Source: a virus
Lineage: Duplodnaviria; Heunggongvirae; Uroviricota; Caudoviricetes
Direction: 5' to 3' (one strand)
Virus record (IMG/VR): IMGVR_UViG_3300042880_000509
DNA length: 64,000 nucleotides
Notes under the pieces: generated by a model
Seen by the model: only the letters and a program-made list of their open reading frames with translations
What the model was told of the DNA's origin: nothing
The model's database searches: none
Translations under genes and position numbers: made by a program
In this document: piece after piece, positions 21,001 through 55,992 of the stretch
How positions within the stretch are numbered: position 1 is the stretch's first letter
Layout: the number at the start of each line of letters is the position of its first letter

Positions 21001-21010
21001 AATAAAAACT

Positions 21011-21835
21011 ATGTTATTAAAAGTAGGATCGAAAGGAGACGATGTAAAAAAACTTCAAGAAAAATTAGGATTAACGGCTGATGGTTCTTTTGGACCTAAA
21101 ACTGAAACGGTGGTAAAAGAATGGCAAACTAAAAACGGATTAACCGCTGATGGTATTGTTGGTGATGGTACTTGGGCTAAAATGTTCGGAACAACTCAAG
21201 TAGTTAAAGAAGATGTTGTGATTACACCAGTTGTAGGACTAAACGTTGAGAAACTAAAAGGTCACATTCCTGATGTTGTTATTGCACAGATAGCGGAAAC
21301 CGCAAAGAAATTTAACATTACAACAAATCTTAGACTTGCTCACTTTTTATCACAATGTGGACATGAGTCAGGAGGATTTAAAGCGGTATCAGAAAATTTA
21401 AACTATTCGGCTGACGGATTAAAAAGAACGTTTGGTAAATACTTTCCTGGTAACTTGGCAGAATCATATGCTAAACAACCAGAAAAGATTGCATCAAGAG
21501 TTTATGCTAACCGTATGAGTAACGGAGATGAAGCGTCAAAAGAGGGTTATAAATTTAGAGGGAGAGGTTATATTCAGTTGACAGGCAAAGGAAACTACAC
21601 AAGTTTTACTAAATTTATTGGTGAAGATTGTGTTGCAAATCCTGATCTTGTTGCTACTAAATACCCATTGGCATCTGCCGCATTTTTCTTTGATTCAAAT
21701 AAACTTTGGTCAATATGTGATAAAGGTGCTGATGATGCTGCGGTAACTGCGGTAACAAAACGAGTAAATGGGGGAACCATAGGACTTGCTGATAGAATCA
21801 AACACTTTAAAGAGTATTATAATTTGTTAAAATAA
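21011..21835 (+). CDS. Endolysin: N-terminal peptidoglycan-binding domain plus GH19 glycoside hydrolase domain
   Basis: PG_binding_1 motif KLQEKLGLTADGSFGPKTETVVKEWQTKNGLTADGIVG. GH19 motifs FLSQCGHESGGF and YKFRGRGYIQLTGKGNY. Start chosen at 21011 (MLLKVGSKGDD). Confidence 0.85.
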   Translation: MLLKVGSKGDDVKKLQEKLGLTADGSFGPKTETVVKEWQTKNGLTADGIVGDGTWAKMFGTTQVVKEDVVITPVVGLNVEKLKGHIPDVVIAQIAETAKKFNITTNLRLAHFLSQCGHESGGFKAVSENLNYSADGLKRTFGKYFPGNLAESYAKQPEKIASRVYANRMSNGDEASKEGYKFRGRGYIQLTGKGNYTSFTKFIGEDCVANPDLVATKYPLASAAFFFDSNKLWSICDKGADDAAVTAVTKRVNGGTIGLADRIKHFKEYYNLLK

Positions 21836-25508: not shown

Positions 25509-26204
25509 CTAATTTTCTAAATTCATTTTTAAAATTCCAATATGTTTTTTAATTTCATCTCTATATTGTTTAGCGATCACCCAAGGCGCCGTGGTACAAT
25601 TAAAATTATTTTCATTTATAAATTGTTTTACTCTGGTTTGTTCTTCTTCTAACAGATTTATCTGTTTTTTAATTTCTTCGCCCATATTATTTATTTTATT
25701 TAATGTTTCTTGTTTAGGTTCTTCTTGTGGAATGATGATTTTGTAATTCTCGTAAATACCTTCTTTAATAGTACCATCAGCAAATCTATCAATGTATTTA
25801 CCATCTTCCATTCTTTCAATCTCAACACACTCACAACTTGGATTCTTTACAAACCAATTCAAGAACTCATCATCAATAGCTTGAACACCATCTGCAATTA
25901 ACTCTGGGTCTGTTGTTAGAATGATTTTTTTGCAAGCATTTAATACTTCAGTAACTCCATCTTGAAATCTAATTATACCTATATTTGATTTAATTTCTAC
26001 TACTTTATGGACTAATTCTTCAGAACATAAACACCAATCTCCTTCTTTAATTTCTTCATTGGAAGTGATGTAGATATTATAATCTTGAAACCAATCTTCT
26101 TCTATTACATTTTCAAAATCATTATCTATTGTAAATATAGAATCTTTTTTATTGTAAAATAATCTACTTGGTTTTTCTGTTGGTAATAAATGTATGTTTT
26201 TCAT
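25509..26204 (-). CDS. Hypothetical protein, duplicated family (paralog of 29801..30580)
   Basis: The N-terminal 130 aa (MKNIHLLPTEKPSRL...KIILTTDPELIADGVQAIDDEFLNWFVKNPSCECVEI) align with those of the gene at 29801..30580. Confidence 0.6.
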   Translation of the reverse strand: MKNIHLLPTEKPSRLFYNKKDSIFTIDNDFENVIEEDWFQDYNIYITSNEEIKEGDWCLCSEELVHKVVEIKSNIGIIRFQDGVTEVLNACKKIILTTDPELIADGVQAIDDEFLNWFVKNPSCECVEIERMEDGKYIDRFADGTIKEGIYENYKIIIPQEEPKQETLNKINNMGEEIKKQINLLEEEQTRVKQFINENNFNCTTAPWVIAKQYRDEIKKHIGILKMNLEN

Positions 26205-26318: not shown

Positions 26319-27185
26319 CTATTGACATACCCAATTCCAAGTTGGGAAGTTTTTATTTCTTATCCTATCTCTTACACTACTGTCTGGCATATTAAAATAT
26401 TTTGCAGCTTCAACCGCAGAATTAAATAACAAACCATCAATCATACATTTTTTAGCTTGTGGTTTTGGTGGTTCTATCAATGCGTATTTTTCTTTTCTTT
26501 TTTCATTCGCTAATTTTGATATTTCTTTACCACCAATTCTACCTTTTTTCCATCCCTCTTCAATAATTCTTGGATCATCAGGTAATGTCCTTAAATGTTC
26601 TCCTTTATCATTATAAAACCACAACTTATTTTTGTGTGCGATTGACATTTTTTCTTTTGTTTTGTCAGTGTGTCTGTGATCAGAACTTTTTTTTCTTAAT
26701 ATTTTTAGTGTCTCATCTGTATGTTTTTTTCCGTAGAATGAATTTTTTTCACCGCCATATTTACCAATTCTTGATAAACTAATTTTGTTTCTTTGTTCTT
26801 CTGTAAGTTTTTTACCAAAATTTGGATTATTAGTCCCTCTTATACTTTTAGAATAATCTTCCTTTATTAAATCATATAACCTTGAATTTATTTTATGTCT
26901 TTCTTGGTATTCTCTCTTAACATTACACATATTCCATAATGCAAATCTTAATTTTGTGTTTTTAGGGTAAATTTCACATAAAAGTAAATGACAGATGAAA
27001 TGTTCTCTAGCGGTTAAAACAACTAAATTCCAAACATCATTTGACCCCCCAAGACATTTTGGTATGATGTGATGTGTTTCTGTGTATCCAGTGATAGTTC
27101 TATTTTTACCTCTTTCAACAATACTATTATAAATTTTCAAATAATCCATCGGTTTCCGTATATTATATAAATATATGGAAACCAA
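26319..27185 (-). CDS. Freestanding HNH homing endonuclease with NUMOD-like DNA-binding repeats
   Basis: HNH motif ETHHIIPKCLGGSNDVWNLVVLTAREHFICH. Repeated GKK(L/H)T(E/D)E..-K(I/M)S modules (NPNFGKKLTEEQRNKISLS, NSFYGKKHTDETLKILRKK). Likely start at the internal MDYLKIYNS. Confidence 0.8.
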   Translation of the reverse strand: MVSIYLYNIRKPMDYLKIYNSIVERGKNRTITGYTETHHIIPKCLGGSNDVWNLVVLTAREHFICHLLLCEIYPKNTKLRFALWNMCNVKREYQERHKINSRLYDLIKEDYSKSIRGTNNPNFGKKLTEEQRNKISLSRIGKYGGEKNSFYGKKHTDETLKILRKKSSDHRHTDKTKEKMSIAHKNKLWFYNDKGEHLRTLPDDPRIIEEGWKKGRIGGKEISKLANEKRKEKYALIEPPKPQAKKCMIDGLLFNSAVEAAKYFNMPDSSVRDRIRNKNFPTWNWVCQ

Positions 27186-27193
27186 CGAAAAAC

Positions 27194-28024
27194 CTAAATT
27201 GCCAACTCTAATTTTGAATTTATTTTAGTTATACCGTCAATACCGGTAATCTCAAAATCATCAATTGTATAGTCGTAGAAGTTTTTATTTTCCTTTAAAA
27301 TTAACTTTGGTTGTGTGTCTAATGGTTCCTTGTTTAATAGTTCTGAAACACCATCAAAATGTCTATCATATATATGAAGGTTTTGGACTAAATGACAGAA
27401 CTTACCAACTTTATAACCACAATGTCCCGCAACCATCATTTGTAAAGCCAAATATTGCACTTTATTAATATAACCCGCAACCAAATAATCGTTTGATCTT
27501 TGGACCAACGTCATATCCAAAACCTTATCTTTATCAACTTTTCTAACCGAACAGAGTATTTCATAAGCACAAGGAAATAAACCATTTGTTTCTTCTAAAT
27601 CAACATATTGATACATACTAATAATATGCCTTCTACCAAATGGATCATTAACTAATCCATCAAGTAGTTTATTCATCAAATCATATCTTTTGATTGTTGC
27701 ACCATATCTCTGACCAATACTATTATCTCCAATATTCCATTCTTCCCACCAGTTAATACCCATCTCACGAGCAACATCAAGTGATGAAGTTTGTTTTTGG
27801 TATATCCAAAGTATTTCTTTAATTCCGGTTTTAATTGCAGTATTCCTTAATGTTGTAATTGGAAACTCACCTTTTAAAATATCATATTCTTCAAATACCT
27901 GTGTGATAAACTTTGAGTGTGATGGTGTCCCATCCTCGTATTTTGGTCTTGGGTTTTCATCCCAAGAACCTTCTGACATAATCTTTGATAAGTTCTGAAT
28001 ATAATATTTGTCGGCTTTACTCAT
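27194..28024 (-). CDS. thyA: Thymidylate synthase (ThyA; long T4-td-like form)
   Basis: FPITTLRNTAIKTGIKEILWIYQ. RRHIISMYQ...FPCAYE (catalytic Cys). QRSNDYLVAGYINKVQYLALQMMVAGHCGYKVGKFCHLVQNLHIYDRH matches the ThyA C-terminal block. Confidence 0.9.
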   Translation of the reverse strand: MSKADKYYIQNLSKIMSEGSWDENPRPKYEDGTPSHSKFITQVFEEYDILKGEFPITTLRNTAIKTGIKEILWIYQKQTSSLDVAREMGINWWEEWNIGDNSIGQRYGATIKRYDLMNKLLDGLVNDPFGRRHIISMYQYVDLEETNGLFPCAYEILCSVRKVDKDKVLDMTLVQRSNDYLVAGYINKVQYLALQMMVAGHCGYKVGKFCHLVQNLHIYDRHFDGVSELLNKEPLDTQPKLILKENKNFYDYTIDDFEITGIDGITKINSKLELAI

Positions 28025-29800: not shown

Positions 29801-30580
29801 TCATTTTATATGTTGTTTCTTTTTAAATTGTTCAAATGATTCTTCATTTATTGTAAAGCTCATTACACCAAGTGCTTTAGCAACAGATATTTCAATTGCA
29901 TTCTTTAGTTCTTCCTCACTATACATTCTTTCAGATTGGTATTTAGCACCTAACCTAACTCCATCATAAAAAGATAAATCTATATCATCTTGTAATCCCT
30001 TTTGGTAAGTTCTTTCAGCAGCTTCTTCAAGTGTTTCATCTTTACTAGTACCTGACTTCTCTCTCATCTCTTGTAAGTCCTTAGTAACTTTTTCCTTGTT
30101 TGTTAAAAGATATTCCCTAAGTGCTAATTTAGCATTTTCTAGTGTAGGATCTTGTTTAGGTTTTTCTTGTGGAATGATGATTTTTAGAAAAGAAGTAATT
30201 TCGGAAATATCACTTAAAACGCCACTATGATATTTTCTAATCTCTACAAACTCACAACTTGGATTCTTTACAAACCATTCTAAGAACTCATCATCAATAC
30301 TCTGAACACCCTCTTCAATTAACTCTTGGTCTGTTGTTAGAATAATTTTCTTACCATTATAATTAACACCTGATACTAAACAATATATATTACTATCCTC
30401 ACCTAAATAATATTCGTCAAATTTAATTTCTTCATCAGAAGTTATGTATAAATGATAATTCTTACAATGTCCTTTTGGTGTGTTAGTTAATCCATTAGTA
30501 TAAAGTTTAATGGATGAACTCCCACCAGGTTTAGTTAACCTACTTGGTTTTTCTGTTGGTAATACGTGTATGTTTTTCAT
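29801..30580 (-). CDS. Hypothetical protein, duplicated family (paralog of 25509..26204)
   Basis: MKNIHVLPTEKPSRL...KIILTTDQELIEEGVQSIDDEFLEWFVKNPSCEFVEI. The C-terminal half diverges from the paralog. Confidence 0.6.
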   Translation of the reverse strand: MKNIHVLPTEKPSRLTKPGGSSSIKLYTNGLTNTPKGHCKNYHLYITSDEEIKFDEYYLGEDSNIYCLVSGVNYNGKKIILTTDQELIEEGVQSIDDEFLEWFVKNPSCEFVEIRKYHSGVLSDISEITSFLKIIIPQEKPKQDPTLENAKLALREYLLTNKEKVTKDLQEMREKSGTSKDETLEEAAERTYQKGLQDDIDLSFYDGVRLGAKYQSERMYSEEELKNAIEISVAKALGVMSFTINEESFEQFKKKQHIK

Positions 30581-35559: not shown

Positions 35560-35847
35560 TTATTTTTTTACAATAGCTTTTGTGAGCTGGTTTATCAGTC
35601 CTTGGACTTCTCCGAAATTATTGAACCGGATTTGTGGATCGGTATTAAAAACCTCAACATACCAATTGTCTTCTTTTATTTCTTCATTTGTTGGTGTGAT
35701 AAATGTCAACCCATCAACAATATCAAGGGCATAGTAATACGAATCATCTTCATCGTGTTCTTTAATTTCTTCACTTTTAAAACCTAAAAGTATTAATTCT
35801 CTTTCTGTCATATTATTTTGTTTCAACAATGTTATAAGTTCCTTCAA
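35560..35847 (-). CDS. Hypothetical protein (95 aa)
   Basis: ORF. Confidence 0.45.
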   Translation of the reverse strand: MKELITLLKQNNMTERELILLGFKSEEIKEHDEDDSYYYALDIVDGLTFITPTNEEIKEDNWYVEVFNTDPQIRFNNFGEVQGLINQLTKAIVKK

Positions 35848-36076
35848 TTACCCCATAAGATGATTCTTCCTGAAACTGGTATGTTTCAGCAACATCACTA
35901 GAATCCATAGGTCTTGTTAAGTACCAGACTTGAGTTTCTTTCCAAGTCACTGTAACTAACTTTCTTCCTTTAGGTAGGTTGATTGTTCCTTTTCCACCCC
36001 AAGTTTTTACTCTTTCGTTCTCCGTACAAGATGTTATCATAACACCCATTAAAACCGTTAAAAATACTTTTTTCAT
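35813..36076 (-). CDS. Small lipoprotein (lipobox ITSC)
   Basis: MKKVFLTVLMGVMITSCTE is a signal peptide with a lipobox Cys. Confidence 0.55.
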   Translation of the reverse strand: MKKVFLTVLMGVMITSCTENERVKTWGGKGTINLPKGRKLVTVTWKETQVWYLTRPMDSSDVAETYQFQEESSYGVIEGTYNIVETK

Positions 36077-36327
36077 TTTATTAATTTTACTTTTATTATT
36101 TCACCTTTTCTATTTGTCTTATATTTCATTCTAAACGTGTCAACTAATATTGCGTTTTGTTCTTTCAGATACAAACAATTCCATTCACAACTATCATGAT
36201 GGTATAAATGTACATGTATTTCTTTTAATTTACCACACCTCAAATAGGTTATATCTTTGTAATTCCAATTTGAACAACTGGATAATACCAACAATACAAG
36301 TATAAGGATTTTATTTATCATAATCAA
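36073..36327 (-). CDS. Small lipoprotein (lipobox LSSC)
   Basis: MIMINKILILVLLVLSSCSNW. Confidence 0.55.
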   Translation of the reverse strand: MIMINKILILVLLVLSSCSNWNYKDITYLRCGKLKEIHVHLYHHDSCEWNCLYLKEQNAILVDTFRMKYKTNRKGEIIKVKLIK

Positions 36328-36539
36328 TTAGTTTGTTTAATTACGTATGGAGGACTAATTCTTACTTCACTACTATCGCTATTAAAGTAGTATACCGTAT
36401 CACCATCAAAACTAATTGTGTCTGTGTACCAGATTGCTGGATGTGGTCCTTCTTTAGTTTCAACAGTTCCTTCTATCTTATATTTGTATTCAGTCTGAGT
36501 ACAAGAAGTTAAAAATAATAATGCTAATAATTTTTTCAT
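36324..36539 (-). CDS. Small lipoprotein (lipobox LTSC)
   Basis: MKKLLALLFLTSCTQ. Confidence 0.55.
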   Translation of the reverse strand: MKKLLALLFLTSCTQTEYKYKIEGTVETKEGPHPAIWYTDTISFDGDTVYYFNSDSSEVRISPPYVIKQTN

Positions 36540-36802
36540 ATATCTCTTGATGTTAATTCGTTTAATATTTCTTCAACTTTTAGTTCACATTCTTTTATTT
36601 TTTTTGTGTGTAAAATGTATATCCCAATAATTAAAACCCAAAAAATAACAAAAAATAAAACAGTTGTAAGGTTAAAAATTAAAAGAATAGACTGTATAAT
36701 ACCCAAAATTGAAATTACAATCTGTGACCAGCAATGTGTATCCATTTTACGAACTTCAATGTATGCCATATCAATTAATTCACTATCCGTTAGATTCTTC
36801 AT
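36536..36802 (-). CDS. Small membrane protein (88 aa)
   Basis: Two TM helices (IVISILGIIQSILLIF, VLFFVIFWVLIIGIYIL). Confidence 0.5.
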   Translation of the reverse strand: MKNLTDSELIDMAYIEVRKMDTHCWSQIVISILGIIQSILLIFNLTTVLFFVIFWVLIIGIYILHTKKIKECELKVEEILNELTSRDI

Positions 36803-37346: not shown

Positions 37347-37648
37347 ATCACGTAAGTTATAACACCATTTTCTTCAACTACTTCTAAAACCCCATCATTT
37401 TCTGAAAGTTTTTCTAATTGATCTGGAGTTAAATTCACACTATCTGGTCCTTGAAACACTTTAAATGGTTGTGTTAATTTTAATCTTGAATCTGTAATCA
37501 AATTCAAAGTCATTTCATTTTCGCATTCAACCAAAGTTGGGTATTGTCCTCCAACTGTAACAATTACCTTATCACCAACATTAATTTCATCAAGAGATGC
37601 TAGGTATGGTTTTTCATCAACGATGAATAATTTTACTTTCTTTGTCAT
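37343..37648 (-). CDS. Hypothetical protein (101 aa)
   Basis: ORF. Confidence 0.45.
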   Translation of the reverse strand: MTKKVKLFIVDEKPYLASLDEINVGDKVIVTVGGQYPTLVECENEMTLNLITDSRLKLTQPFKVFQGPDSVNLTPDQLEKLSENDGVLEVVEENGVITYVI

Positions 37649-38031
37649 TTTTCAATATTAAAATTTAATAGAGTTTCAACTTCTTGATTTTTTGTTTCAA
37701 CAATTGGTCCCCACTCTCCTTTATACGTTATACCTCTTACAGGTTTATTATCAATCCAAACATATTCTTCATCTTCAGAACATCTTGGTTTATCAGTTAT
37801 CAAATCATTAAACTTAAATCCGTGTCTCCATAACCAGGCGAGTGTAGTTCCTTTATCTTTATATTCTCTGGCGGTAAAGAAAACTATTTTATTTCCTTCA
37901 TCATAAAGTTTATTTATTTCTTCTTTGGATCCTTCGTATGGTTTTGCGATTGGGTATAGATAGCTATCCTCATTTTTAATGTCGTCACATACAGTTCCAT
38001 CAATGTCAATTAAATAAACTCTTTTTTTCAT
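37645..38031 (-). CDS. HAD-superfamily phosphatase (small, 128 aa)
   Basis: Motif I LIDIDGTV (DxDGT). Motif II VFFTAR. Confidence 0.55.
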   Translation of the reverse strand: MKKRVYLIDIDGTVCDDIKNEDSYLYPIAKPYEGSKEEINKLYDEGNKIVFFTAREYKDKGTTLAWLWRHGFKFNDLITDKPRCSEDEEYVWIDNKPVRGITYKGEWGPIVETKNQEVETLLNFNIEK

Positions 38032-38342
38032 AACCTCAAATCGTTTTTAGCGTTCATAGTTATAATATAATCCATTAAATTTTTAACTAAAGAATCGGCA
38101 TCAACTTTTTCGTATAATTCTGGGTATCTGTCTTGAAGTAGTTTATTCTCTTCATACTCTCTACAACTTGAGAGGATGTCTGAAAGCATTGATCTTAACA
38201 TATGTTCTTTATCATATGTATCTTCAACTTTTCTTTCCAATACTTGACCTTCAAGTTCTTGAGTATATTCAATAAGTTCTTGGACTTCAGGTTTTTCAAG
38301 AAGATCAGGTCGTCTACGAAATAGTTGTTTTATGTTTTTCAT
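38028..38342 (-). CDS. Hypothetical protein (104 aa)
   Basis: ORF. Confidence 0.45.
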   Translation of the reverse strand: MKNIKQLFRRRPDLLEKPEVQELIEYTQELEGQVLERKVEDTYDKEHMLRSMLSDILSSCREYEENKLLQDRYPELYEKVDADSLVKNLMDYIITMNAKNDLRL

Positions 38343-38884
38343 TCCAAAAACTTTAATATTTTTTCTTTAATACCTGATTGTTTTATTCCTTCGTTGTGTG
38401 GTCGTTTACAATGAATAAAGTTCTCAAGTCCCCAACCATCTCGTTTTGACATATCAAGATCATCAACAGCAACCCAATTTGTTACTTCCGGATGTTCTTT
38501 TAACCAATGTAAAATTTCAATATGTCGTTCGTATTCTATTTTATTAAAATATGGTAAAAGAAAATCATCCGGCAATTTACCTTCACGAAATAGAACACTA
38601 CAAAATGCTGTTATATCAATTGGTGGTTTAATTCCACGAGTAACAAACATTTCTTTTATTTGTTCTAATGTTCCGTGTTTTTTCCAATCAGATGAAATAA
38701 CTAATTCACAACCGGTTTTTTCTACGATTTCATTTAATACTTTAACAGCTTTTTGATTGAAGCTGTCCATTCGGATATCCATGGGAGTTTCCGGATTTGA
38801 GTCAAATCCTTTTTTCTTGTATCGTCCGCCCCATTCAGAAGAAAGACAAATTACACCATCGTGATCTAAGAACATTACTTTCAT
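38339..38884 (-). CDS. Putative HAD-like phosphatase (181 aa)
   Basis: N-terminal MFLDHDGVI fits DxDG[TV]. The rest is unassigned. Confidence 0.4.
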   Translation of the reverse strand: MKVMFLDHDGVICLSSEWGGRYKKKGFDSNPETPMDIRMDSFNQKAVKVLNEIVEKTGCELVISSDWKKHGTLEQIKEMFVTRGIKPPIDITAFCSVLFREGKLPDDFLLPYFNKIEYERHIEILHWLKEHPEVTNWVAVDDLDMSKRDGWGLENFIHCKRPHNEGIKQSGIKEKILKFLE

Positions 38885-38921
38885 AGATACAAAGATAATA
38901 AATTAAAATTGAATTTACAAA

Positions 38922-39650
38922 TTAATAAATGTTAAACTTAATTGGTATGTTTAACCTTGATCTAACATTCACTTTATTAATTCTACCTGGAATCCATTTA
39001 GGCGAACTTTTAATTACCCTTCTTGCTTCTCTGTCTACTTCAAAGCTAACCCCTTTTGTTACTTTTACATCACCAATACTTCCATCAGTTTCAACTATAA
39101 ACATAACATATACAGTTCCTTGATCCCCATTCTCAATTGCAATCTCAGGATATTTCATTTCCTTTAAAAGATATTTTTTCCATTCCTCATATCCTCCAGG
39201 AAATTCAGCTTCAATATCAGGAAAATCCTCAACCTTATCTGGAGCCACAACAGGGACAGGATCTACATTAACAAGTACAGTTGTATCTCCTTTTGGTAAA
39301 CCTAAATCAACAAAAGGATTGTTATCGGTGGGTCCGGTGTTTGATGTAGTGTCAACATCACTATTTAAATCCAAAGTTTCATCTTTTTGTGATTCTGATT
39401 GTGGTTGTGGTTGTTCTTTTGGTGGTTCAACAACTGGTGGTTTTTCGGTTGCGTCAACCAATAAATTGGTGTTTTCGGGTGATAATCTTTTGAATTTTTC
39501 TTCAATTGGTTCTGTTTTTCCGTATGAGACTGCAGCTAAAACAATCCCGCTAATAAAACAAAGACCAGCCATAAAATTACCTAATTTTTTTTCTTCTAAA
39601 TTGTGATTACTTTTCTTTTCCATAACTATTATTTTCGTTATGGAATACAA
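38922..39650 (-). CDS. TonB-like protein: N-terminal TM anchor, Pro-rich spacer, TonB C-terminal domain
   Basis: TM helix LGNFMAGLCFISGIVLAAV. Spacer KPPVVEPPKEQPQPQSESQ. C-terminus EFPGGYEEWKKYLLKEMKYPEIAIENGDQGTVYVMFIVETDGSIGDVKVTKGVSFEVDREARRVIKSSPKWIPG matches the TonB_C signature. Confidence 0.6.
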   Translation of the reverse strand: MYSITKIIVMEKKSNHNLEEKKLGNFMAGLCFISGIVLAAVSYGKTEPIEEKFKRLSPENTNLLVDATEKPPVVEPPKEQPQPQSESQKDETLDLNSDVDTTSNTGPTDNNPFVDLGLPKGDTTVLVNVDPVPVVAPDKVEDFPDIEAEFPGGYEEWKKYLLKEMKYPEIAIENGDQGTVYVMFIVETDGSIGDVKVTKGVSFEVDREARRVIKSSPKWIPGRINKVNVRSRLNIPIKFNIY

Positions 39651-41002: not shown

Positions 41003-41590
41003 TTAATCATTATTTTTTATAACTTCAATAACTTTTAAGGACCAGGGATCAAAAAAGTTATCAGTTTTACAAATTTCAATTGTATTTGTTAGTGCGTTAA
41101 AGTAAATGTCACCGTTTTTAATTGGTTCCATAAGTTTTTTTAGATATCTTTTTCCTTCATATTCAACATAAAGTTTTTCATTTCTATGTTCATCACAAAG
41201 GGTATAAACCCACCCATTAATTTTGTGTTGTTCTCCAGGTTCACCACACACTTCACAAACTTGGAATGTTTCTCTTTCGGCTTCAGCAACAAAATAAAAT
41301 CCATTTTCTGGTAGGTTATCCAAAAATATACTCATACCACCAAATTTTTCTTTTACATTAATAAAACTTTTATCCCAACCAAGTTTTATTAAAACTTCAA
41401 ATAATCTTTGTACTATACCCAACCAACCATTACCAATTCCAAATTGATTTCGTTTAAGGATTGGTCCTTTATCTACCCTATATGTTCTTTGAAGTCCCTC
41501 AATTTTTTCAAGGAAGTTTTCAAACTCTGCGTCTGTTCTATGATTATTGTTCATTCGTATTCCCATCTTTTCTTTGGTGTCTAACAACAC
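41003..41590 (-). CDS. Hypothetical protein with CxxC...C..H motif (195 aa)
   Basis: CEVCGEPGEQHKINGWVYTLCDEH. Confidence 0.5.
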   Translation of the reverse strand: MLLDTKEKMGIRMNNNHRTDAEFENFLEKIEGLQRTYRVDKGPILKRNQFGIGNGWLGIVQRLFEVLIKLGWDKSFINVKEKFGGMSIFLDNLPENGFYFVAEAERETFQVCEVCGEPGEQHKINGWVYTLCDEHRNEKLYVEYEGKRYLKKLMEPIKNGDIYFNALTNTIEICKTDNFFDPWSLKVIEVIKNND

Positions 41591-41975
41591 TTAAAGCATT
41601 TGATAGTGTCCAGTAAGCATCCCAAAATCCACCACGGTCATCAAGGAAGATATTTGCATACAACTTTCCGTTAACACCATAAGGTTTATTCCATTCTGGG
41701 TGCATTTCATTTACTCCGTGTACTTCAATACCTAAAGCTTCAACCTGTTCTTTTCCTTTCTGTAATTGATCCTTACTTCTTGCAGTATTTATCAAAAAGT
41801 ATATACCTTCTTCTTGACACTCCAAAATTAAATCAACCATTTTTTTACAGTTTTCTTTAAGTTCTTCATTGTAAGGAATGATTGTATCATCAAGATCACA
41901 AGCTATAATAATCTTACCATTTCTCAACCATTCCTTGACTAATCTGTTTGTATAAAAATTTGCGTGATGTCTCAT
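41544..41975 (-). CDS. HAD-like phosphatase (143 aa)
   Basis: IIACDLDDTII (DxDxT motif I). FLINTARS (motif II). Confidence 0.5.
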   Translation of the reverse strand: MRHHANFYTNRLVKEWLRNGKIIIACDLDDTIIPYNEELKENCKKMVDLILECQEEGIYFLINTARSKDQLQKGKEQVEALGIEVHGVNEMHPEWNKPYGVNGKLYANIFLDDRGGFWDAYWTLSNALSVVRHQRKDGNTNEQ

Positions 41976-41991: not shown

Positions 41992-43029
41992 TTAATTTCC
42001 AAACCCTACTTTACCACCACCTTTAATTGTTGGTGTTTTTTTCAACCCTTCAAGATTATCAATTGTTTCTTCAAAAGTTCTACCCATAACAATAACAGAA
42101 ATTACAACTTCTTTTAAGTGCGACAAAGACATTCCTTCAGTTTTTTTAATCCACTCTTCAATATCAATACCTTTCAAATCATCCTCACTTAATTTGTGTT
42201 CAATATATGCTCTTCTAATATCTTCATTTGGGAGTTCCACTTTATATCTTCTATCAAAACGAGATGGTCTATTTGTAATTCTTTCCTGTAGTTTCTCCGG
42301 GTAGTTTGTTGTTGCAATATAAACAACACCTTCAATTTGTTTTACACCATCAAGAATGTTTAATAATCTGGCGGTCTGACTTCTTCCTTCACCAGCGAGT
42401 GAATCAATATCTTCTAATAAAACAATTAATGGTCTGTTAGGTTCAATTTTTCTAAATGTTGCAATAAATGATGTAAACCTTTCAACATCTTCTTCATCTT
42501 TAACATTGATCACAATACCATCTTTTTCAATTATTTGTTGCGATATTAGTTGAATGATACCTGACTTACCACAACCTGGTTCACCATACATCAATATACC
42601 TCTTTTGTGGATATAGTTATACTTCTTATAGTTGTCCGCTCTATTCCAGAAATTATCAATATCTTTTAAAATGTCTGTAATTTCATATGACGGTAAATGG
42701 TATAACTCATCTGTCTTGAATGGTTGTTTCTTAACAGTATATGTTGATAGACTACTATTCCAGCCTATTTCATAAACACCGGCAGGAACCTTTGGTACTG
42801 TTTGGTACGCTGGAGCGTATTCATTATTTTTTAAATTACTCCAACAAGAAGGAATATCTAAATCTTTTTTTTCTTCTTCAACCGGTTTACTGATAATAGG
42901 TTCGTCCATTCTTTCATCATCAGTATATTCTACCGTTTCTTCAATATATTCTTCACTCATATTATTTTTTATTAAAATTTTTCTTAATTCTTTTTTCCAG
43001 TTTATTTCCATTGTTCTAACGTATTCCAA
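41992..43029 (-). CDS. AAA+ ATPase (classic AAA family)
   Basis: Walker A ILMYGEPGCGKSG. Walker B LIVLLEDIDSL. Sensor/second region of homology ILDGV...ATTNYPEKL...RPSRFDRR. Confidence 0.8.
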   Translation of the reverse strand: MEYVRTMEINWKKELRKILIKNNMSEEYIEETVEYTDDERMDEPIISKPVEEEKKDLDIPSCWSNLKNNEYAPAYQTVPKVPAGVYEIGWNSSLSTYTVKKQPFKTDELYHLPSYEITDILKDIDNFWNRADNYKKYNYIHKRGILMYGEPGCGKSGIIQLISQQIIEKDGIVINVKDEEDVERFTSFIATFRKIEPNRPLIVLLEDIDSLAGEGRSQTARLLNILDGVKQIEGVVYIATTNYPEKLQERITNRPSRFDRRYKVELPNEDIRRAYIEHKLSEDDLKGIDIEEWIKKTEGMSLSHLKEVVISVIVMGRTFEETIDNLEGLKKTPTIKGGGKVGFGN

Positions 43030-44885: not shown

Positions 44886-44944
44886 TCATCTTTAAAACCT
44901 TGTTTTTCAGTTGTTTTTAAATGGGTGTTGATATATATTAGTTA
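44886..44944 (-). repeat. 59-nt intergenic repeat, copy 1 (begins exactly at the stop codon of the methyltransferase gene)
   Basis: TCATCTTTAAAACCTTGTTTTTCAGTTGTTTTTAAATGGGTGTTGATATATATTAGTTA on the plus strand. The copy at 50801..50859 differs at one position. Confidence 0.7.
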
Positions 44945-45736
44945 GTTGCAATACTGCGAAGCCCTCCGAACAGCAACATCGTAATATTGTTTTTCCTTTT
45001 CTATTCCAATTGATTTGCGATTTAATTTGATACAAGCCAAATTGGTAGTTCCTGAACCCATTGTATTATCCAATACCATATCACCTTCGTTTGTGTATGA
45101 TTTCACAAGCATTTCAAGTAAAGCAAGCGGCTTCTGAGTTGGATGTATCGTTCCATCAAGCTTTGTTTTTTGTTTATCTGAAGCAAAAACTTGTACACTT
45201 CTTGGGTATCTGTCAGTTTCTCCACCACCACTTACATCTTGCTTTACTTTCCCATACACTTCTGTTTTATTACAAACTTCGGCTTTCTTGGTATAGGTAT
45301 TTACAGGCTTATGTCCTTCTGTTTTTTGTGGATTAAACTTTGGGGTTTTATTGTAAAATACTAAAATATTTTCGTGTGCTTTCATAGGCATTTTCTTTGC
45401 ATTAAAATATCCTGTTGCTTGTGTTTTCTCCCAAATCCATTCGTATTTTAACCATTCCAAATTTGAGCAACCAAGCACTTTATCAAATGGTGTTTGTGCA
45501 AATAAAACTACCACTCCATTATCTTTTAGTATTCTTTTGTATTGCTCCCAAAGTTTATTTAAGTCTAAAACAGAATCCCATTTGCAGTTAGTAGTTCCAT
45601 AAGGCAAATCGCAAATAATAGCATCAATTGATTTATCATCAATAAAAGGAAAAACATCAAAGCAATCAGCTTTCACAAAAGTACTGCCACTAACACGTGT
45701 TTGGCAAAATGGCTGTTCAGTAATTCTATCAATCAT
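44942..45736 (-). CDS. DNA methyltransferase (N6-adenine/N4-cytosine family, beta-class order)
   Basis: Motif IV DAIICDLPYGT (DPPY-like) is N-terminal. The C-terminal AdoMet motif VLDNTMGSGTT places it in PF01555-like architecture. Confidence 0.8.
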   Translation of the reverse strand: MIDRITEQPFCQTRVSGSTFVKADCFDVFPFIDDKSIDAIICDLPYGTTNCKWDSVLDLNKLWEQYKRILKDNGVVVLFAQTPFDKVLGCSNLEWLKYEWIWEKTQATGYFNAKKMPMKAHENILVFYNKTPKFNPQKTEGHKPVNTYTKKAEVCNKTEVYGKVKQDVSGGGETDRYPRSVQVFASDKQKTKLDGTIHPTQKPLALLEMLVKSYTNEGDMVLDNTMGSGTTNLACIKLNRKSIGIEKEKQYYDVAVRRASQYCN

Positions 45737-45919: not shown

Positions 45920-45958
45920 ATAAAAAAAAGTGACTCAACCAAGTTAATGGGAGTCACC
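45920..45958 (-). terminator. Intrinsic terminator overlapping the last codons of the RNA ligase gene (GTGACTC...GAGTCAC plus T8)
   Basis: 7-bp stem with a 14-nt loop. The minus strand continues with TTTTTTTT. Confidence 0.65.
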
Positions 45959-47077
45959 TACGTTATTTTTTTCACCATATATCAAGTAATCAGGATTTAT
46001 TACCTTACTTACTTTTCTACGGTCACCAGTTATAGATTTAACAACAACACCTTCGTGTGGTACTTTGGTGCCTTCTATGTTATTATTGAAGACGAATTTA
46101 TCTTGTTCTTCTTTATTCCAATTACCCTGGTATAACAATTCAACTTGTGGTAATTGTAAACAATCAAAATGTACGGTTTCATTTATGTAAGGCTGGTATA
46201 CACCATCAACTTCAACATCAAACCCGGCGAATTTAACATCAGTTAAACCGTACTCATAGTTTTTTTGTATACCAGCTCCATATATCTCACCATATATTAC
46301 AACACCTTCAGTTAGGTCAGATGGTTCGTAAGTATCTTTTACGTGATCCCACAATTTACCTCTTATGTCGTATGTGCTACCAACAGTTTTCCATACATCG
46401 GTGTCATAGAAGCCTTGAGAATCGGATCCTTTCTCAACATTATGTGAGCCGTAAACATATTCAAATGCAACCCATTGATTTCCGAAAAACATTTTAACAC
46501 GGTCCCATAGAGAAAGTTTTTTCTTTCTAACTATTCCGTAACGAGCATTGGTTCCGTGAAGTTTACGAGTTATAACAACTTCGTCTTCTTCACTAAACAT
46601 ATCCGGAACATTCTTCTGGTTTGGAAATTTGTAATAAACATGGAAGTTAGGGTTTTGATGGTATTTTACTTTACGTCCACCAACACTTAACTGAACGGTT
46701 TTAACTGGTGGTTCGTATTTAGTTATACCAAGTATTCCCATCATATCATCGCCTTCGTTTACGTTATTCTCCAAAGATTTTGGAGCTAAGTACTTGAATG
46801 GTATTAACAAACATTCAGAGTAAACACCACGAAGTTTTACGGTTCTAACTCTTTGCCCTTTACGAAGGTAATTAGTTACACCCATTAAATCAGATAAATC
46901 CTGTGGTATTACAGCATCGGTAGTTGCTACAACAACCTTATCACCAACCTGGTATTCTCCTTTTTTAGTTATGGCGTTCCATCCACCAACAGTTACTAAT
47001 TCTATATTATCAGCACCCGGTATTTCAGACACGGATCCTATTTTTCCTACGTATGCAACACTATTTAAATTTTTCAT
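45944..47077 (-). CDS. RNA ligase (Rnl2-like nucleotidyltransferase) with N-terminal tRNA-binding OB-fold (Myf/Trbp111-like) domain
   Basis: N-terminus AYVGKIGSVSEIPGADNIELVTVGGW...KGEYQVGDKVVVA matches the tRNA_bind fold. Motif I KLHGTN (Rnl2 KIHGTN). EGVVIYGE, GFDV and a C-terminal PHEGVVVKS...RRKVSKV (motifs IV/V). Confidence 0.6.
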   Translation of the reverse strand: MKNLNSVAYVGKIGSVSEIPGADNIELVTVGGWNAITKKGEYQVGDKVVVATTDAVIPQDLSDLMGVTNYLRKGQRVRTVKLRGVYSECLLIPFKYLAPKSLENNVNEGDDMMGILGITKYEPPVKTVQLSVGGRKVKYHQNPNFHVYYKFPNQKNVPDMFSEEDEVVITRKLHGTNARYGIVRKKKLSLWDRVKMFFGNQWVAFEYVYGSHNVEKGSDSQGFYDTDVWKTVGSTYDIRGKLWDHVKDTYEPSDLTEGVVIYGEIYGAGIQKNYEYGLTDVKFAGFDVEVDGVYQPYINETVHFDCLQLPQVELLYQGNWNKEEQDKFVFNNNIEGTKVPHEGVVVKSITGDRRKVSKVINPDYLIYGEKNNVGDSH

Positions 47078-47495: not shown

Positions 47496-48305
47496 TTAAT
47501 TATCACTATCTTCTTCAAAATTTATCAATAAATCAAACTCTTTTTCTTTTCTTTTTTCTTCCACCCTCTTTAAAGAAATATTAAAATAATCCATACTATT
47601 CTCAATTCCGATAAAGTTTCGGTTGGTATTTATACAAGCAATTCCTGTTGTACAACTACCAAATGTATTATCTAAAATAGTATCACCATCATTACTGTAT
47701 GAGTTTATCAACCATTCAATCAATTCAACAGGTTTTTGTGTGCTATGTAATTGGTCTTGTCTTCTCCATTTTTGTTGAAAAAATTGTACAGTTGAAGGAT
47801 ACCTAAATCCATCATTAATAGTTTCACTTTCAGAAATTACACCAAGTTTATGATTGTTTGGTTTATCTCCTTTATTCGCTTTTCGCTTTCTATAATATGG
47901 TTTGCCTTCTTCAAGTTGTGGATTATAAACAACTTTACCTTTACCAAATATTAAAATGTTTTCGTGTTTTTGAACAGGTCTATATTTAGCGGTAAATGAA
48001 CTACCACTTTTAGATTTGTGCCAAATTATTTCATACTTATACATTTTTTCATTCGATAATGCTAATTTGTAAGCAAACAAACCTGTTCCAAATAAAGCAA
48101 TAGCACCATCATCTTTTATAATCCTTTTATATTGTTCCCAAAGTTGTTCAAATGGAATTACAATATCCCAATAGTTTTTAGTTGAACCATAAGGTAAATC
48201 ACAGCAAATAAAGTCAATACTTTTATCAGGTATCAATTTCATTTGTTCTATTGTATCTCCGTATCTTAAATCTATTGTCATAATTTTATTCAACGTCGTC
48301 TTCAA
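47496..48305 (-). CDS. DNA methyltransferase, second copy of the same family
   Basis: DFICCDLPYGST and ILDNTFGSCTT. About 35-40% identical by eye to 44942..45736 over conserved blocks. Confidence 0.8.
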   Translation of the reverse strand: MKTTLNKIMTIDLRYGDTIEQMKLIPDKSIDFICCDLPYGSTKNYWDIVIPFEQLWEQYKRIIKDDGAIALFGTGLFAYKLALSNEKMYKYEIIWHKSKSGSSFTAKYRPVQKHENILIFGKGKVVYNPQLEEGKPYYRKRKANKGDKPNNHKLGVISESETINDGFRYPSTVQFFQQKWRRQDQLHSTQKPVELIEWLINSYSNDGDTILDNTFGSCTTGIACINTNRNFIGIENSMDYFNISLKRVEEKRKEKEFDLLINFEEDSDN

Positions 48306-52165: not shown

Positions 52166-52600
52166 TTATTTTGGTGTGATTCTATATTTGAAGAAGGGTA
52201 TGTTTGTTTTTACTTTTTTTACATCGTGATGATCATTATAATCCATCTTAACCATTTCTTCATAATCAATGGTGTATTTGTTGTCATTATAATTTGATGT
52301 TAATTCATCGCCTTTTTTAATATCTTTGATTGTTTTACCATAAATTTTATTACCAACTTTGGTATTTTTGATATTTGGATCAAAACTATGATTAAGGTAT
52401 CTAACCGGTTCTCCACCAAAATAGGACCCATCTTTGATTATAACATAAAGATATTCAGTATTTTTTTTAATATCTTCTTTAGCAAAAACACCTTTTCCGG
52501 CAATTTTACTTTTTTTTACTTCAATTTTATCATAAAAAGAATTATCTAACTTTTTTTTATTAGTCTCCTCAGTTAAAATTCTTTTTATAATTGATTTCAT
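52166..52600 (-). CDS. SET-domain protein (putative protein-lysine methyltransferase) with shared leader
   Basis: SKIAGKGVFAKEDIKKNTEY (GxG motif), RYLNHSFDPN (NHSxxPN) and GDELTSNY (ELxxxY). N-terminus MKSIIKRILTEET. Confidence 0.65.
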   Translation of the reverse strand: MKSIIKRILTEETNKKKLDNSFYDKIEVKKSKIAGKGVFAKEDIKKNTEYLYVIIKDGSYFGGEPVRYLNHSFDPNIKNTKVGNKIYGKTIKDIKKGDELTSNYNDNKYTIDYEEMVKMDYNDHHDVKKVKTNIPFFKYRITPK

Positions 52601-53873: not shown

Positions 53874-54527
53874 TTAACCCACAACTCCAATTAAATCATC
53901 TAGGTGGTGATCTCCAGACATATCTGATCCTACTGGTCTTTTATCCATCATTTTAATGATATCGTCAATACTATATGGATCCATACCATTTCCATCCATT
54001 CCAACATCCAATCTTTTTCCGTTACCAAATTTCTTTTCTCTACCTAAATGTACGTGACCGTGCAAATGGATTACGCCTTTATTTAGACCATGCCAGCTCT
54101 GTAATGGATAATGACATAAAACAAAGTTTCTATCATTTATTTTAACTTCAAGGTAGTGGTTTACACTTAAAAACTTACGTTGTATGGCCATTCTATCATT
54201 TTCAATATGGTGATCGTGATTTCCTAATATAAGATGAATGTTTTTACAAACCAATCTATCAAGAAATAATCCGATATTATCAAAACCACCAAATGAAACA
54301 TCGCCTAACATTATTAGTGTGTCGTCTTGTCCTACCATATTGTTAATGCCATCAATAAGTCTTTCGTTCATTTGTTCAATAGTTTCAAAATCCCTCACCG
54401 AATCAACTGGTATTTGTCCATCCTGGGTTCTCCAGTTTGTTACACCTCGTACAATATTTTTGTGTCCGTAATGTGTATCCGATGTTATGAATACTTTTCC
54501 TGTTGTTAATATTTTTTTAAAACTCAT
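53874..54527 (-). CDS. Calcineurin-like metallophosphoesterase (second one in the window)
   Basis: VFITSDTHYGH, IMLGDVSFGG, LILGNHDHH, HLHGHVH. Confidence 0.8.
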   Translation of the reverse strand: MSFKKILTTGKVFITSDTHYGHKNIVRGVTNWRTQDGQIPVDSVRDFETIEQMNERLIDGINNMVGQDDTLIMLGDVSFGGFDNIGLFLDRLVCKNIHLILGNHDHHIENDRMAIQRKFLSVNHYLEVKINDRNFVLCHYPLQSWHGLNKGVIHLHGHVHLGREKKFGNGKRLDVGMDGNGMDPYSIDDIIKMMDKRPVGSDMSGDHHLDDLIGVVG

Positions 54528-54541
54528 AATTTTTTTTATTC

Positions 54542-55603
54542 CTAATAATTAATTGTTCCACCAGTAAATGAAGTTATTGGTCTTACGTCATGTTCTGACA
54601 CTAAACTTGGTGTTGTATGATTAAAATATGTTAAATAATCATTAATATCCATAGTCATATTTCTAGGATAGTCTGTAATTCTTCTTCTTATAACAGTTTC
54701 TCCATTCACAATTTGTTCAGTTTGTTCTTCTGTTGGTAAATCATCGTTTGGTCCTACTGGTGCCATATACGGTTCAGATATCCACGTGCTTTTATAACGA
54801 TTAAGATCCATTAAACTTCTTATTCTGTCAACTATGTTTGAATGGTCAGTTGTTTCATTATTGCCTTGGTAAGTATTAATTATATCTGAAACAGAAACTG
54901 GTTTATTTCTTTTTTTACCATAAATCAAATCAATTGTTCTTTCATTTTTTTGTAATTCTTTTCTAATCTTTAAAAAGATTTCATCCGGAATAAAATTCAC
55001 AAACATTGGACTAACTTCACTATCGTCCGCGGTCCAAGCTTGGAATTTATCATCACCGTAATCTCTTGAAAAAGCTATTTTAGTATCAGTTTTTTTATTA
55101 ATACAATAAACTAACCTATGTGTTTTTAAATATTTGTCCCAATATCTTTCTTGTGTTGTACACCATTTTGTATTTGATCCATAAACTCTTGAGGCATCAA
55201 AACTTAAAGGTGTTAATACTAACCAGGTATCATCTTCGTGTATTTTCAAAATTTGTTTTTCAACTTCTTTTTGTTTTTCAATATCTTTGGCAATCTTAAC
55301 TTGTTCGTTTAACTCTTTAAAATTTTTATATTTACTAATGTCTTTTTCTTTTATTCTATTAGCTCTTGAGTGTCTTTCAAATTCATTTAAAACTTCAATT
55401 TCATTTGAACCGAACAAAAATACTCCCAGATAACCTTTAAGCTCATCCAAATTTGGACTGTAATATTGGTTATCCCTTTTAAAGTTTTTAATTAAAAACT
55501 CGGTATACTTGTAAGTGCCAGTCGGATCTAATGATGTTATGATATCAATTAATGATACATTTAAATCCGGATGTTGTTCTTTAAGTTTGTCTAATCTACT
55601 CAT
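54542..55603 (-). CDS. Hypothetical protein (353 aa), paralog of 43171..44310
   Basis: See 43171..44310. Confidence 0.6.
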   Translation of the reverse strand: MSRLDKLKEQHPDLNVSLIDIITSLDPTGTYKYTEFLIKNFKRDNQYYSPNLDELKGYLGVFLFGSNEIEVLNEFERHSRANRIKEKDISKYKNFKELNEQVKIAKDIEKQKEVEKQILKIHEDDTWLVLTPLSFDASRVYGSNTKWCTTQERYWDKYLKTHRLVYCINKKTDTKIAFSRDYGDDKFQAWTADDSEVSPMFVNFIPDEIFLKIRKELQKNERTIDLIYGKKRNKPVSVSDIINTYQGNNETTDHSNIVDRIRSLMDLNRYKSTWISEPYMAPVGPNDDLPTEEQTEQIVNGETVIRRRITDYPRNMTMDINDYLTYFNHTTPSLVSEHDVRPITSFTGGTINY

Positions 55604-55992
55604 AACTTTACTTCAAATCTATTTTTCATTTGTTCTATTTTATCTTCTGGAACATTGTGAACATTTGTTCCTCCGTGTCTATTTTCAACAATTATAGTAA
55701 AAACTTTATAACCATATTTTTTTGCTAATTCAAAATATTTTTCTAACTCCCATTCTTGTGTAAAGGTGTTAGAAACAACTATTTTATCCACATTTAATAC
55801 CATATCCCCTTCTACTCGGTTTTGACACCATTCGTGTGCTAGTTTAATTTTGGATCCGTCAAATTTATATTCTCCCGAAATTGGATCTATAAAAAACATA
55901 TCAGCTTCGTAGTGTCTCCCACCTAATGTTTTAGCAAATGTTGATTTTCCTGATCCTACAACCCCTCTAACACAGTATAATATTTTTTCCAT
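55600..55992 (-). CDS. Small P-loop kinase (AAA_33/polynucleotide-kinase-like)
   Basis: Walker A GVVGSGKST four residues from the N-terminus. 130 aa. Resembles the T4 Pnk kinase module and zeta-toxin/AAA_33 kinases. Confidence 0.6.
   Translation of the reverse strand: MEKILYCVRGVVGSGKSTFAKTLGGRHYEADMFFIDPISGEYKFDGSKIKLAHEWCQNRVEGDMVLNVDKIVVSNTFTQEWELEKYFELAKKYGYKVFTIIVENRHGGTNVHNVPEDKIEQMKNRFEVKL

Follow-up and report, generated by a model that had tools for sequence, protein, structure and literature searches.

The IMG/VR record IMGVR_UViG_3300042880_000509, a stretch of 64,000 nt of viral DNA (referred to here, at its full length, as the window), encodes on its minus strand a TonB-like protein, most likely of 233 amino acids, which comprises a short tail, a transmembrane (TM) anchor, a linker and a C-terminal TonB domain (CTD) and which, on the evidence of sequence profiles, is homologous at both its ends to the TonB4/TonB6 class of energy transducers from Bacteroidota. 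Together with at least 39 full-length homologs from metagenomes (56–96% identity) it forms a family, hereafter the phage family. With a probability of about 0.55, we interpret the protein as a working, host-derived member of the TonB4/6 class by which energized import would be maintained, boosted or re-targeted during infection. As a protein it is an ordinary representative of a well-known family; the new part is its viral residence, that is, the TonB4-class identity of a phage-borne transducer, its spread across phage backbones and the modular exchange of its TM region.

Sequence Features and Class Assignment of the Phage Protein

Membership of the protein in the TonB family is far beyond chance. 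A preliminary description of this DNA had read the open reading frame (ORF) 38922–39650 as a full TonB with membrane anchor, proline-rich stretch and TonB_C domain; all three parts are present, and the N-terminal module is, in addition, homologous to that of cellular TonBs. The C-terminal part is recognized above the curated cut-offs by both Pfam PF03544 (TonB_C; E-value 6e-16, 59.1 bits versus a cut-off of 24.6, profile positions 2–79 of 79) and TIGR01352 (41.8 bits versus 27.1). TonB_C spans residues 155–232, no further Pfam domain scores above cut-off and the NCBIfam equivalog PRK10819 gives just 13.5 bits (cut-off 265). In the AlphaFold2 model, the CTD has a predicted local distance difference test score (pLDDT) of about 90, and the top 17 Foldseek matches in the PDB are all CTDs of the TonB family (TMt 0.40–0.79, at least 0.57 for 15 of them), including chains solved bound to FoxA, TbpA, BtuB and FhuA and, at the closest, with a root-mean-square deviation of about 2 Å; a sequence profile search of the PDB retrieved TonB/HasB only. 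Accordingly modeled, the CTD is predicted to adopt the TonB CTD fold. The residues Y158-P159, G169, G181 and W210 do not vary among the 18 aligned family sequences and were matched, by motif context in an alignment made by eye, to Y163-P164, G174, G186 and W213 of the Escherichia coli protein; YP, Gly174, Gly186 and Trp213 are reported as fully conserved in functional TonBs (PMC10350073).

The cellular relatives split into two classes, A and B, according to their N-termini. Class A proteins have 270–295 residues and an RNKEYGAY N-terminus, and a scan for ExbB/ExbD signatures places their genes last in exbB-exbD-exbD-tonB operons (at the Fluviicola locus L028, ExbB and ExbD beside the class A tonB were confirmed by Pfam; loci compared here carry the prefix L). 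Their similarity to the phage protein is restricted to the CTD (45–52% for L028, L040 and L056). Class B proteins, in contrast, have 220–240 residues, start with ME-KKS-KADLE-KR followed by one TM helix and align with the phage protein over the full length at 29–34% identity. Because the CTDs of class A and class B are equally similar to that of the phage (about 50%), a tree of this domain of only about 95 residues would not be robust, and the N-terminal 48 residues of 31 cellular class B TonBs were instead combined into a profile. This N-terminal profile gives 23.6 bits (E-value 2.9e-6) for the window protein and 20.7–39.8 bits across the 18 sequences in the family alignment, versus 9.1 bits for the best of 2000 composition-matched shuffles and at most 6.7 bits for the N-termini of class A, the type of TonB5 from Bacteroides thetaiotaomicron. 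Judged by these scores, homology to TonB4-class TonBs extends to the N-terminal end of the phage protein and is not confined to the CTD.

The assignment of class B to a studied group of TonBs proceeds via Bacteroides. A class B protein from this genus (L100) has 227 residues with TonB_C at 149–226, and its gene stands in the order tonB-polyprenyl synthase-TatD-ExbB-hypothetical-ExbD-ExbD (ExbB and ExbD confirmed by Pfam). The same length and domain position are reported for TonB4 (BT2059) and TonB6 (BT2762) of B. thetaiotaomicron, the published neighborhood of BT2059, with tonB4 about 3 kb from exbB-exbD-exbD, matches the L100 layout (PMC10350073), and TonB5 has 270 residues and lies within an exbBD operon (PMC10350073, Pollet et al.). 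Mutants deleted for TonB4 grow more slowly on starch, pectic galactan and chondroitin sulfate, and its counterpart in Bacteroides fragilis is reported to be essential for growth on polysaccharides (PMC10350073). The tie of the phage protein to the studied TonB4 thus consists in shared architecture and in the agreement between the surroundings of a class B gene from Bacteroides and the published tonB4 locus, at an identity of the phage protein of only 29–34%. With TonB4, TonB6 and B. fragilis TonB3, it shares the size class (233 versus 227 residues), a single TonB_C at the C-terminal end, the N-terminal module ME-KK-(K/N)(A)(D/N)LE-K(K/R) with one TM helix, an acidic and proline-rich linker, the YP/Gly/Gly/Trp residues and the lack of an SHLS histidine (see below). 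It differs in that those genes are chromosomal and tonB4 lies near exbBD, whereas the phage gene has no exbB or exbD in reach and possesses a linker motif of its own. The earlier label of a short TonB variant of Bacteroidetes type can therefore be kept as to the type and sharpened to the TonB4/TonB6 class.

The anchor is the single strongly hydrophobic segment of the protein (residues 14–35; Kyte-Doolittle maximum over 19 residues of 2.04 at 14–32, no other such window above 1.6), it is modeled by AlphaFold2, using the family alignment, as part of a helix at residues 7–35, and it is conserved across the phage family. The following linker (residues 36–139) comprises 104 residues, among them 15 prolines, and is rich in proline and acidic residues; with pLDDT values below 50 at residues 39–104 it is predicted to be disordered, and AlphaFold2 did not predict a coiled coil in it. 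Of the proline-rich spacer that had been described, a proline-rich string (EKPPVVEPPKEQPQPQSESQ) does exist, although it is short and not the enterobacterial polyproline region, as the Pfam family PF16031 was not detected in the protein. Bacteroides TonBs likewise lack PF16031 (PMC10350073). E. coli TonB, accordingly, is alike in its three-domain plan and CTD fold (1xx3, 1u07, 2gsk_B and 2grx_C are among the fold matches), whereas the phage protein has neither SHLS nor a long (EP)n(KP)n polyproline region. A motor box, defined as a β-strand shortly after the TM helix (PMC12204202), may be represented by NLLVDAT, which is position-equivalent to EIIPITEQ...PPPP of cellular class B proteins. Further downstream, the linker contains a motif F/VDLGLPKGDTTV(I/L)VN with DLGLPKGDTTV as core that is near-invariant in 15 phage-family rows of the alignment A1, while the same columns are gapped in the cellular-type rows P0040, P0044 and P0047. 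In these alignments the motif is specific to the phage family and absent from cellular class B TonBs; AlphaFold2 predicts no structure for this region.

With regard to the gene start, the ORF comprises 242 codons when counted from a TTG. The homologs of the family have 230–248 residues, mostly 233–235, and nearly all begin with MEKK or METK, and because of these lengths and starts the ATG at position 39623 is preferred as the most likely true start, giving a protein of 233 residues to which all residue numbers refer. The gene calls in related contigs begin at ATG, not at TTG, and the extension MYSITKIIV upstream of the ATG is probably not translated. In public databases, members of the family carry only the automatic label "protein TonB."

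Table 1. Positions of the TonB-like gene, its protein segments and associated elements in the window, and of the corresponding cassette in the phage contig L004.
Feature	Position	Strand	Remarks
TonB-like coding sequence	38922..39623	-	233 codons plus stop codon at 38922-38924; most likely the true coding sequence
Nine-codon extension from TTG (MYSITKIIV)	39624..39650	-	Missing in most homologs
Cytoplasmic N-terminal tail (predicted), residues 1-15 (MEKKSNHNLEEKKLG)	39579..39623	-	Class B motif ME-KK...LE-KK
TM signal-anchor helix, residues 16-35 (NFMAGLCFISGIVLAAVSYG)	39519..39578	-	Presumed dock for the host ExbB/ExbD motor
Candidate motor box NLLVDAT, residues 53-59	39447..39467	-	Hydrophobic, just before the proline-rich segment; placed by position
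Proline-rich segment EKPPVVEPPKEQPQPQSESQ, residues 60-79	39387..39446	-	Read from the sequence; inside the linker 36-139
Phage-family linker motif, residues 104-119 (FVDLGLPKGDTTVLVN)	39267..39314	-	Near-invariant in the phage family
C-terminal TonB domain, residues 140-233	38925..39206	-	Presumed binder of the TonB box of outer-membrane transporters
Promoter-like site TTTG-N20-TATCTTTG	38890-38921	-	In the 37-nt gap after the TonB-like stop codon, 5 nt before the HAD_SAK_2 ATG
L004: promoter-like site, Bacteroidota-type TTTG-N20-TATATTTG	9743-9774
L004: 59-codon ORF	9781-9960
L004: TonB-like gene	10001-10705
L004: bidirectional terminator	10711-10740		12-bp stem

Phage Origin of the Gene

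The window is filled with about 119 ORFs, most of them small and almost all in the same orientation; a tRNA scan detected no tRNA genes in it, and cellular housekeeping genes are missing. Its accessory content is of phage type, with thymidylate synthase and an adjacent HNH/NUMOD3 homing endonuclease, two N6/N4 DNA methylases, an RNA ligase (phrog_968), several HAD phosphatases, a UvrC-like nuclease, an SPFH protein, NUDIX and DUF3310 proteins and two endolysin-like proteins. Syntenic contigs share 26–28 proteins each with the window; two of them are viral genomes from IMG/VR with lengths of 62 and 45 kb. In the contig L004, moreover, the family member adjoins a T4 gp13/Ad2 head-tail adaptor, the small subunit of ribonucleotide reductase, DnaJ/GrpE and a T4-type Rnl1, and an AAA ATPase of the window (41992–43029, minus strand) is 37–40% identical to proteins of uncultured phages of 460–595 kb. 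The phage-encoded nature of the gene, as stated in the preliminary description, is well founded on this accessory content, the viral syntenic relatives, the homolog beside the T4 gp13/Ad2 adaptor and the kinship of the ATPase.

That the window instead represents cellular or plasmid DNA, or a host contig placed in the wrong bin and carrying an ordinary host tonB, would fit with capsid, terminase and tail genes not having been identified within its 64 kb and with the lack of any match when 7 kb surrounding the gene were compared by megablast with 50,697 phage records. In view of the dense array of small co-directional genes lacking tRNAs and housekeeping functions, the phage-typical content, the viral contigs of 45–62 kb in synteny and the company of adaptor, reductase and Rnl1 genes in L004, such an origin is highly improbable, and the distance to all cellular copies (see below) speaks against it as well. 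A PHROGs search gave nothing meaningful for the TonB-like protein and only the Ad2 adaptor for the large neighbor proteins of related contigs, and PADLOC found no defense-system match for the TonB-like protein and its immediate neighbors. The AAA ATPase mentioned above is matched by the PADLOC models for IetA, the ATPase of the IetAS defense system, with 55.7 bits and also matches phrog_7485.

Selection on the Gene and Its Mobility Among Phages

Every family contig examined (L001–L011) is of viral type. In seven pairwise comparisons, the ratio of nonsynonymous to synonymous divergence (dN/dS) is between 0.12 and 0.32 at dS values of 0.5–1.6, and by region it amounts to about 0.1–0.4, being similarly low in tail and TM helix, the segment following the TM helix, linker (0.10–0.32) and CTD. 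The gene is under purifying selection in every region, and because the ratio is low in all of them, anchor and linker should be more than passive parts.

The TonB-like gene is the only gene common to the window and L004, two phage backbones that are otherwise unrelated. The L004 copy is located on the strand opposite to that of its neighbors and is framed by the elements listed in Table 1, which, as read from the sequence, form a self-contained cassette of promoter-like site, small ORF, gene and terminator in the classic layout of a moron. A generic sigma-70 scan gave no more sites than in shuffles. In the window, the promoter-like site in the gap downstream of the TonB-like gene, placed 5 nt ahead of the HAD_SAK_2 start codon, would result in a near-leaderless transcript for the HAD_SAK_2 gene.

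Compared with the contig L007 (gene at 1987–2688), the neighboring proteins of the window are 99–100% identical, and the TonB-like protein differs mainly by 8–9 substitutions in the TM region (LGNFMAGLCFISGIVLAAV in the window, 39519–39582 on the minus strand, versus the L007-type FSNFMVGFCFMSAVVLAAA). The synonymous divergence is 0.26 in this region versus 0.02 elsewhere, a pattern indicating that the N-terminal module has been exchanged by recombination between the window phage and L007.

Capture of TonB genes by phages is apparently not a single event. The unrelated 735-kb uncultured phage LR756501.1 (L106, 2464–3264) encodes a full-length TonB with TM helix, PPPPPP linker and TonB_C and is in this respect another large phage comparable to the one studied here; its protein, however, belongs to class A, with the N-terminus RNKEYGSY that is also found in L012. 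This gene represents an independent acquisition of another class, so that complete TonBs have been captured by phages at least twice. The other viral TonB_C proteins (L012–L020), among them anchor-less proteins of 142 residues consisting of signal peptide and TonB_C (L013–L015), are likewise independent acquisitions.

Cellular Relatives and Probable Host

For comparison with cellular copies, one genome for each of 185,579 species was scanned and the best 80 loci were kept. All of these belong to Bacteroidota except for four contigs of metagenome-assembled genomes (Lentimonas, Lachnospiraceae, Actinomycetota and Paratractidigestivibacter), which are probably mis-binned, and the top of the list is occupied by Flavobacteriales, mostly Crocinitomicaceae (Fluviicola, Wandonia and Crocinitomix, with family membership checked). 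Among these 80 loci, identity never exceeds 34% over the whole protein and 53% over the domain only. Because no cellular copy among them is more than 53% identical, the phage lineage of the gene is, as far as sequence distance tells, old and not a recent capture.

The closest cellular relative on CTD and architecture combined is the class B TonB of Crocinitomicaceae and other Flavobacteriales, with full-length identities of 32–34% for the group around P0121 ("energy transducer TonB [Crocinitomicaceae bacterium]"). In the Flavobacteriales class B protein L027, the CTD is 51% identical to that of the phage, and the TM helix (GLNYVAGLVLAVFTYG) is strikingly similar to the phage one (GLCFISGIVLAAVSYG). 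The chromosomal gene differs from the phage gene in occupying a housekeeping locus, with the fixed order gcvH-tonB-endonuclease-gyrB, and in a middle linker part that is not alignable.

The GC content of the window (29.6%) is near that of the Crocinitomicaceae contigs L021, L023, L024, L035 and L038 (32–33%), with 35–39% in other Flavobacteriales relatives (38% in L027). A Shine-Dalgarno-like tetramer is present at positions -20 to -5 in only 6 of 112 window genes (5%), and low Shine-Dalgarno usage is characteristic of Bacteroidota. The -7 motif TAnnTTTG occurs 17 times within 100 nt upstream of starts versus 7.1 ± 2.6 times in shuffles and 12 times in the antisense control, a modest signal for a Bacteroidota host. 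The affinity to Bacteroidetes that had been suspected from the domain and the low GC content is borne out by the phylum of the homologs, Shine-Dalgarno usage and base composition. Neither of the two outcomes named there as contradicting the TonB reading occurred, since the TonB_C profile matches and the homologs stem from the expected phylum. Based on these sequence characters, the host of this large, low-GC phage is most likely a freshwater member of the Flavobacteriales, with Crocinitomicaceae as the best candidate.

Proposed Function of the Phage TonB

After infection, the protein would be inserted into the host inner membrane with its N-terminus inside and its C-terminus outside, and cytoplasmic tail and TM helix would dock on the proton-driven ExbB-ExbD motors of the host. 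The disordered linker of about 100 proline-rich and acidic residues would bridge the periplasm, allowing the CTD to pair with the TonB box of SusC-like and other TonB-dependent transporters (TBDTs) in the host outer membrane. As net effect, the import of glycans, iron or vitamins would be kept, boosted or re-targeted while the phage replicates, a direction of action, energizing rather than blocking, that we infer. This would follow the logic of auxiliary metabolic genes, as when phages replace a component of the host that is in short supply or quickly lost. Any activity must proceed through host partners, since exbB, exbD and TBDT genes are absent from the window (Pfam search of ORFs of at least 75 residues, partly as concatenated pseudo-proteins) and from the related phage loci; regular expressions for ExbB/ExbD signatures, applied to all loci, had no match in the related phage loci versus matches beside cellular class A tonB.

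Energizing is favored over blocking in view of the retention of all modules by selection, the TonB4-type N-terminus, the repeated capture of TonBs by phages and the occurrence of SusC-like receptors in megaphages (Mar_Mega_1 and LR745206), where they are interpreted as auxiliary metabolic genes for uptake (PMC9723777). These receptors and the Llp protein of phage T5, the latter interpreted as an agent of superinfection exclusion (PMC9586334), resemble the case described here in that phages carry or target parts of the same import system. They differ in being an outer-membrane barrel and a lipoprotein, respectively, whereas the window phage encodes the energy transducer itself.

Several points weigh against the energizing role. 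It presumes that TonB is limiting in the infected cell. A dominant-negative protein engaging ExbBD and TonB boxes would keep every feature of an active TonB, too. No canonical host-type promoter is found directly upstream of the TonB-like gene in the window, and AlphaFold2 shows no strand at the candidate motor box, which is placed by position alone. The closest Crocinitomicaceae class B genes are not adjacent to exbBD, so that they themselves are presumptive transducers. Finally, the SHLS motif (Ser-x3-His-x6-Leu-x3-Ser), which binds the motor in the TM helix of proteobacterial TonB and TolA (PMC12204202), is absent, as the TM helix of every phage-family member is devoid of histidine. This is weak counter-evidence and was rejected as disqualifying, since SHLS is equally missing from the consensus of the 31 TonB4-class N-termini of cellular origin; the motif defines the proteobacterial type and not the Bacteroidota TonB4 class, so that its absence is informative chiefly about the class and less about the phage copy.

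A dominant-negative or decoy TonB, occupying host ExbBD and/or TonB boxes without productive transduction and thereby shutting TBDTs, is the main alternative to the energizer, though held with low confidence; the preliminary description had already raised it as sabotage of TonB-dependent uptake in the host. It would result in exclusion of superinfecting phages or bacteriocins or in switching off nutrient signaling of the host. In E. coli, TonB-dependent transport is inhibited when TonB, or the periplasmic fragment of it, is overproduced, and the phage protein has all that is needed for competing with host TonB, yet lacks the SHLS histidine. Moreover, the linker motif not present in cellular relatives could alter coupling, the moron-like cassette of L004 with host-type promoter and terminator is a typical format of exclusion genes and three small lipoprotein-like ORFs lie 2–3 kb downstream of the gene in the window. 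Anchor-less proteins of signal peptide and TonB_C, as in the other viral contigs, resemble pure decoys, and phage T5 is reported to block the TBDT FhuA with a lipoprotein (PMC9586334). For mere blocking, however, a CTD or TM helix alone would suffice, whereas tail, TM helix, linker length and CTD are all kept by selection. Furthermore, the loss of SHLS is not phage-specific, being shared by the cellular TonB4 class, and no receptor is known for the window phage or its competitors.

A related and still more tentative idea is that the phage TonB acts as a switch instead of a helper, in that it out-competes the host TonBs for ExbBD and TonB boxes and in this way closes or re-targets TonB-dependent gates. 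Here, the swappable TM module and the phage linker motif would tune which motor is captured, and acquisition would be convergent, with class B in the window, class A in the 735-kb phage and anchor-less TonB_C decoys elsewhere. If true, this would establish a novel mechanism for excluding superinfecting phages or bacteriocins at the step of energy transduction and not at the receptor.

Reuse of the TonB fold as an inner-membrane-anchored periplasmic tether, e.g., a spanin-like lysis factor, an anchor to peptidoglycan or outer membrane or an organizer of membrane processes, appears improbable. The combination of inner-membrane anchor, periplasm-spanning linker and domain facing the outer membrane is indeed reminiscent of an i-spanin, genes for small lipoprotein-like products and for a membrane protein lie 2–3 kb downstream and many TonB_C architectures that are not transducers exist in Bacteroidota (PMC10350073). 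The gene is, however, not part of a lysis cassette, the endolysin-like genes (5475–7936 and 20951–21835) lying at distances above 17 kb, no partner gene accompanies it in the L004 backbone, the linker lacks a coiled coil and the residues for TonB function as well as the TonB4-type N-terminus are all kept. A role as spanin or in lysis was rejected due to the distant endolysin-like genes and the missing traveling partner.

The preliminary description had further considered that the phage TonB powers DNA entry or gates the adsorption receptor. TonB-dependent entry exists in principle, and the coliphages T1 and phi80 need host TonB for irreversible adsorption. The protein of the window phage, though, is made only after the genome is already inside, carries an inner-membrane signal-anchor and has, within the window, small genes of non-structural type (for RNA ligase, HAD phosphatases and ATPase) and not virion genes around it, which renders this proposal very unlikely; on grounds of topology and gene context, a virion or entry role was rejected.

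Neighboring Genes

Three consecutive ORFs of the window (35813–36076, 36073–36327 and 36324–36539, minus strand) encode products with lipoprotein-like signal peptides that end in ...SC and are followed by a small membrane protein (36536–36802); this set is partly conserved in L007 and L011, and a further lipoprotein-like ORF is located at 57323–57973. The products of 35813–36802 could be exclusion lipoproteins or components of spanins.

Scattered around the TonB-like gene is a set of RNA-repair-like genes (37645–38884, 41544–41975, 45944–47077 and 53874–55992, minus strand), comprising the RNA ligase phrog_968, HAD_SAK_2 directly downstream of the TonB-like gene, two more HAD phosphatases, an AAA_33 kinase-like protein and a metallophosphatase. 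HAD_SAK_2 denotes the "Swiss-army-knife RNA repair" phosphatase, and the gene order is kept in L001, L007 and L010.

On the plus strand, a histidine kinase with PAS-PAS-HATPase arrangement (18276–19874) directly precedes a response-regulator receiver protein (19892–20329), the two forming a two-component pair over 18276–20329; sensor kinases are unusual in phages. Downstream of this pair, a coiled-coil/TM protein (20326–21000) and an endolysin-like protein with PG_binding and GH19 domains (20951–21835) are encoded. Five tandem paralogs of about 225 residues are found at 9034–12437 (minus strand), one of them matching DUF6878, with a related gene in L001 and L010. The homing endonuclease gene abuts that of thymidylate synthase (26319–28024, minus strand), the two N6/N4 DNA methylases are paralogous (44942–45736 and 47496–48305, minus strand), and a SET-domain protein is encoded at 52166–52600 (minus strand). 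Two other paralogs (25509–26204 and 29801–30580, minus strand), sharing the N-terminus MKNIH(L/V)LPTEKPSRL and the central region, have no family match.

Implications for Phages of Bacteroidota

TBDTs, in particular SusC-like ones, are the main route of Bacteroidota for polysaccharides, iron and vitamins and are frequent phage receptors. The literature searched contains no characterized phage-encoded TonB; a KEGG match to tonB is listed for three lambda-like gut viruses (PMC7288430). Among the viral structures of BFVD, a TonB CTD fold was not found at an E-value of up to 0.001, although the same query finds TonB CTDs of the PDB at 1e-5.

The gene can be used as a host marker for an uncultured phage lineage, pointing to Bacteroidota and probably Crocinitomicaceae. 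In addition, a natural divergent TonB with swapped TM helix and novel linker motif offers material for dissecting how the TonB4 class docks to ExbBD without SHLS. A complete phage-borne transducer of TonB4 type would mean viral intervention at the energy-coupling step, beyond receptors or metabolism. If it is blocking, this would be a new exclusion principle. If it is energizing, import of nutrients across the outer membrane would join the functions kept running by phages in infected aquatic Bacteroidota, which would bear on carbon turnover.

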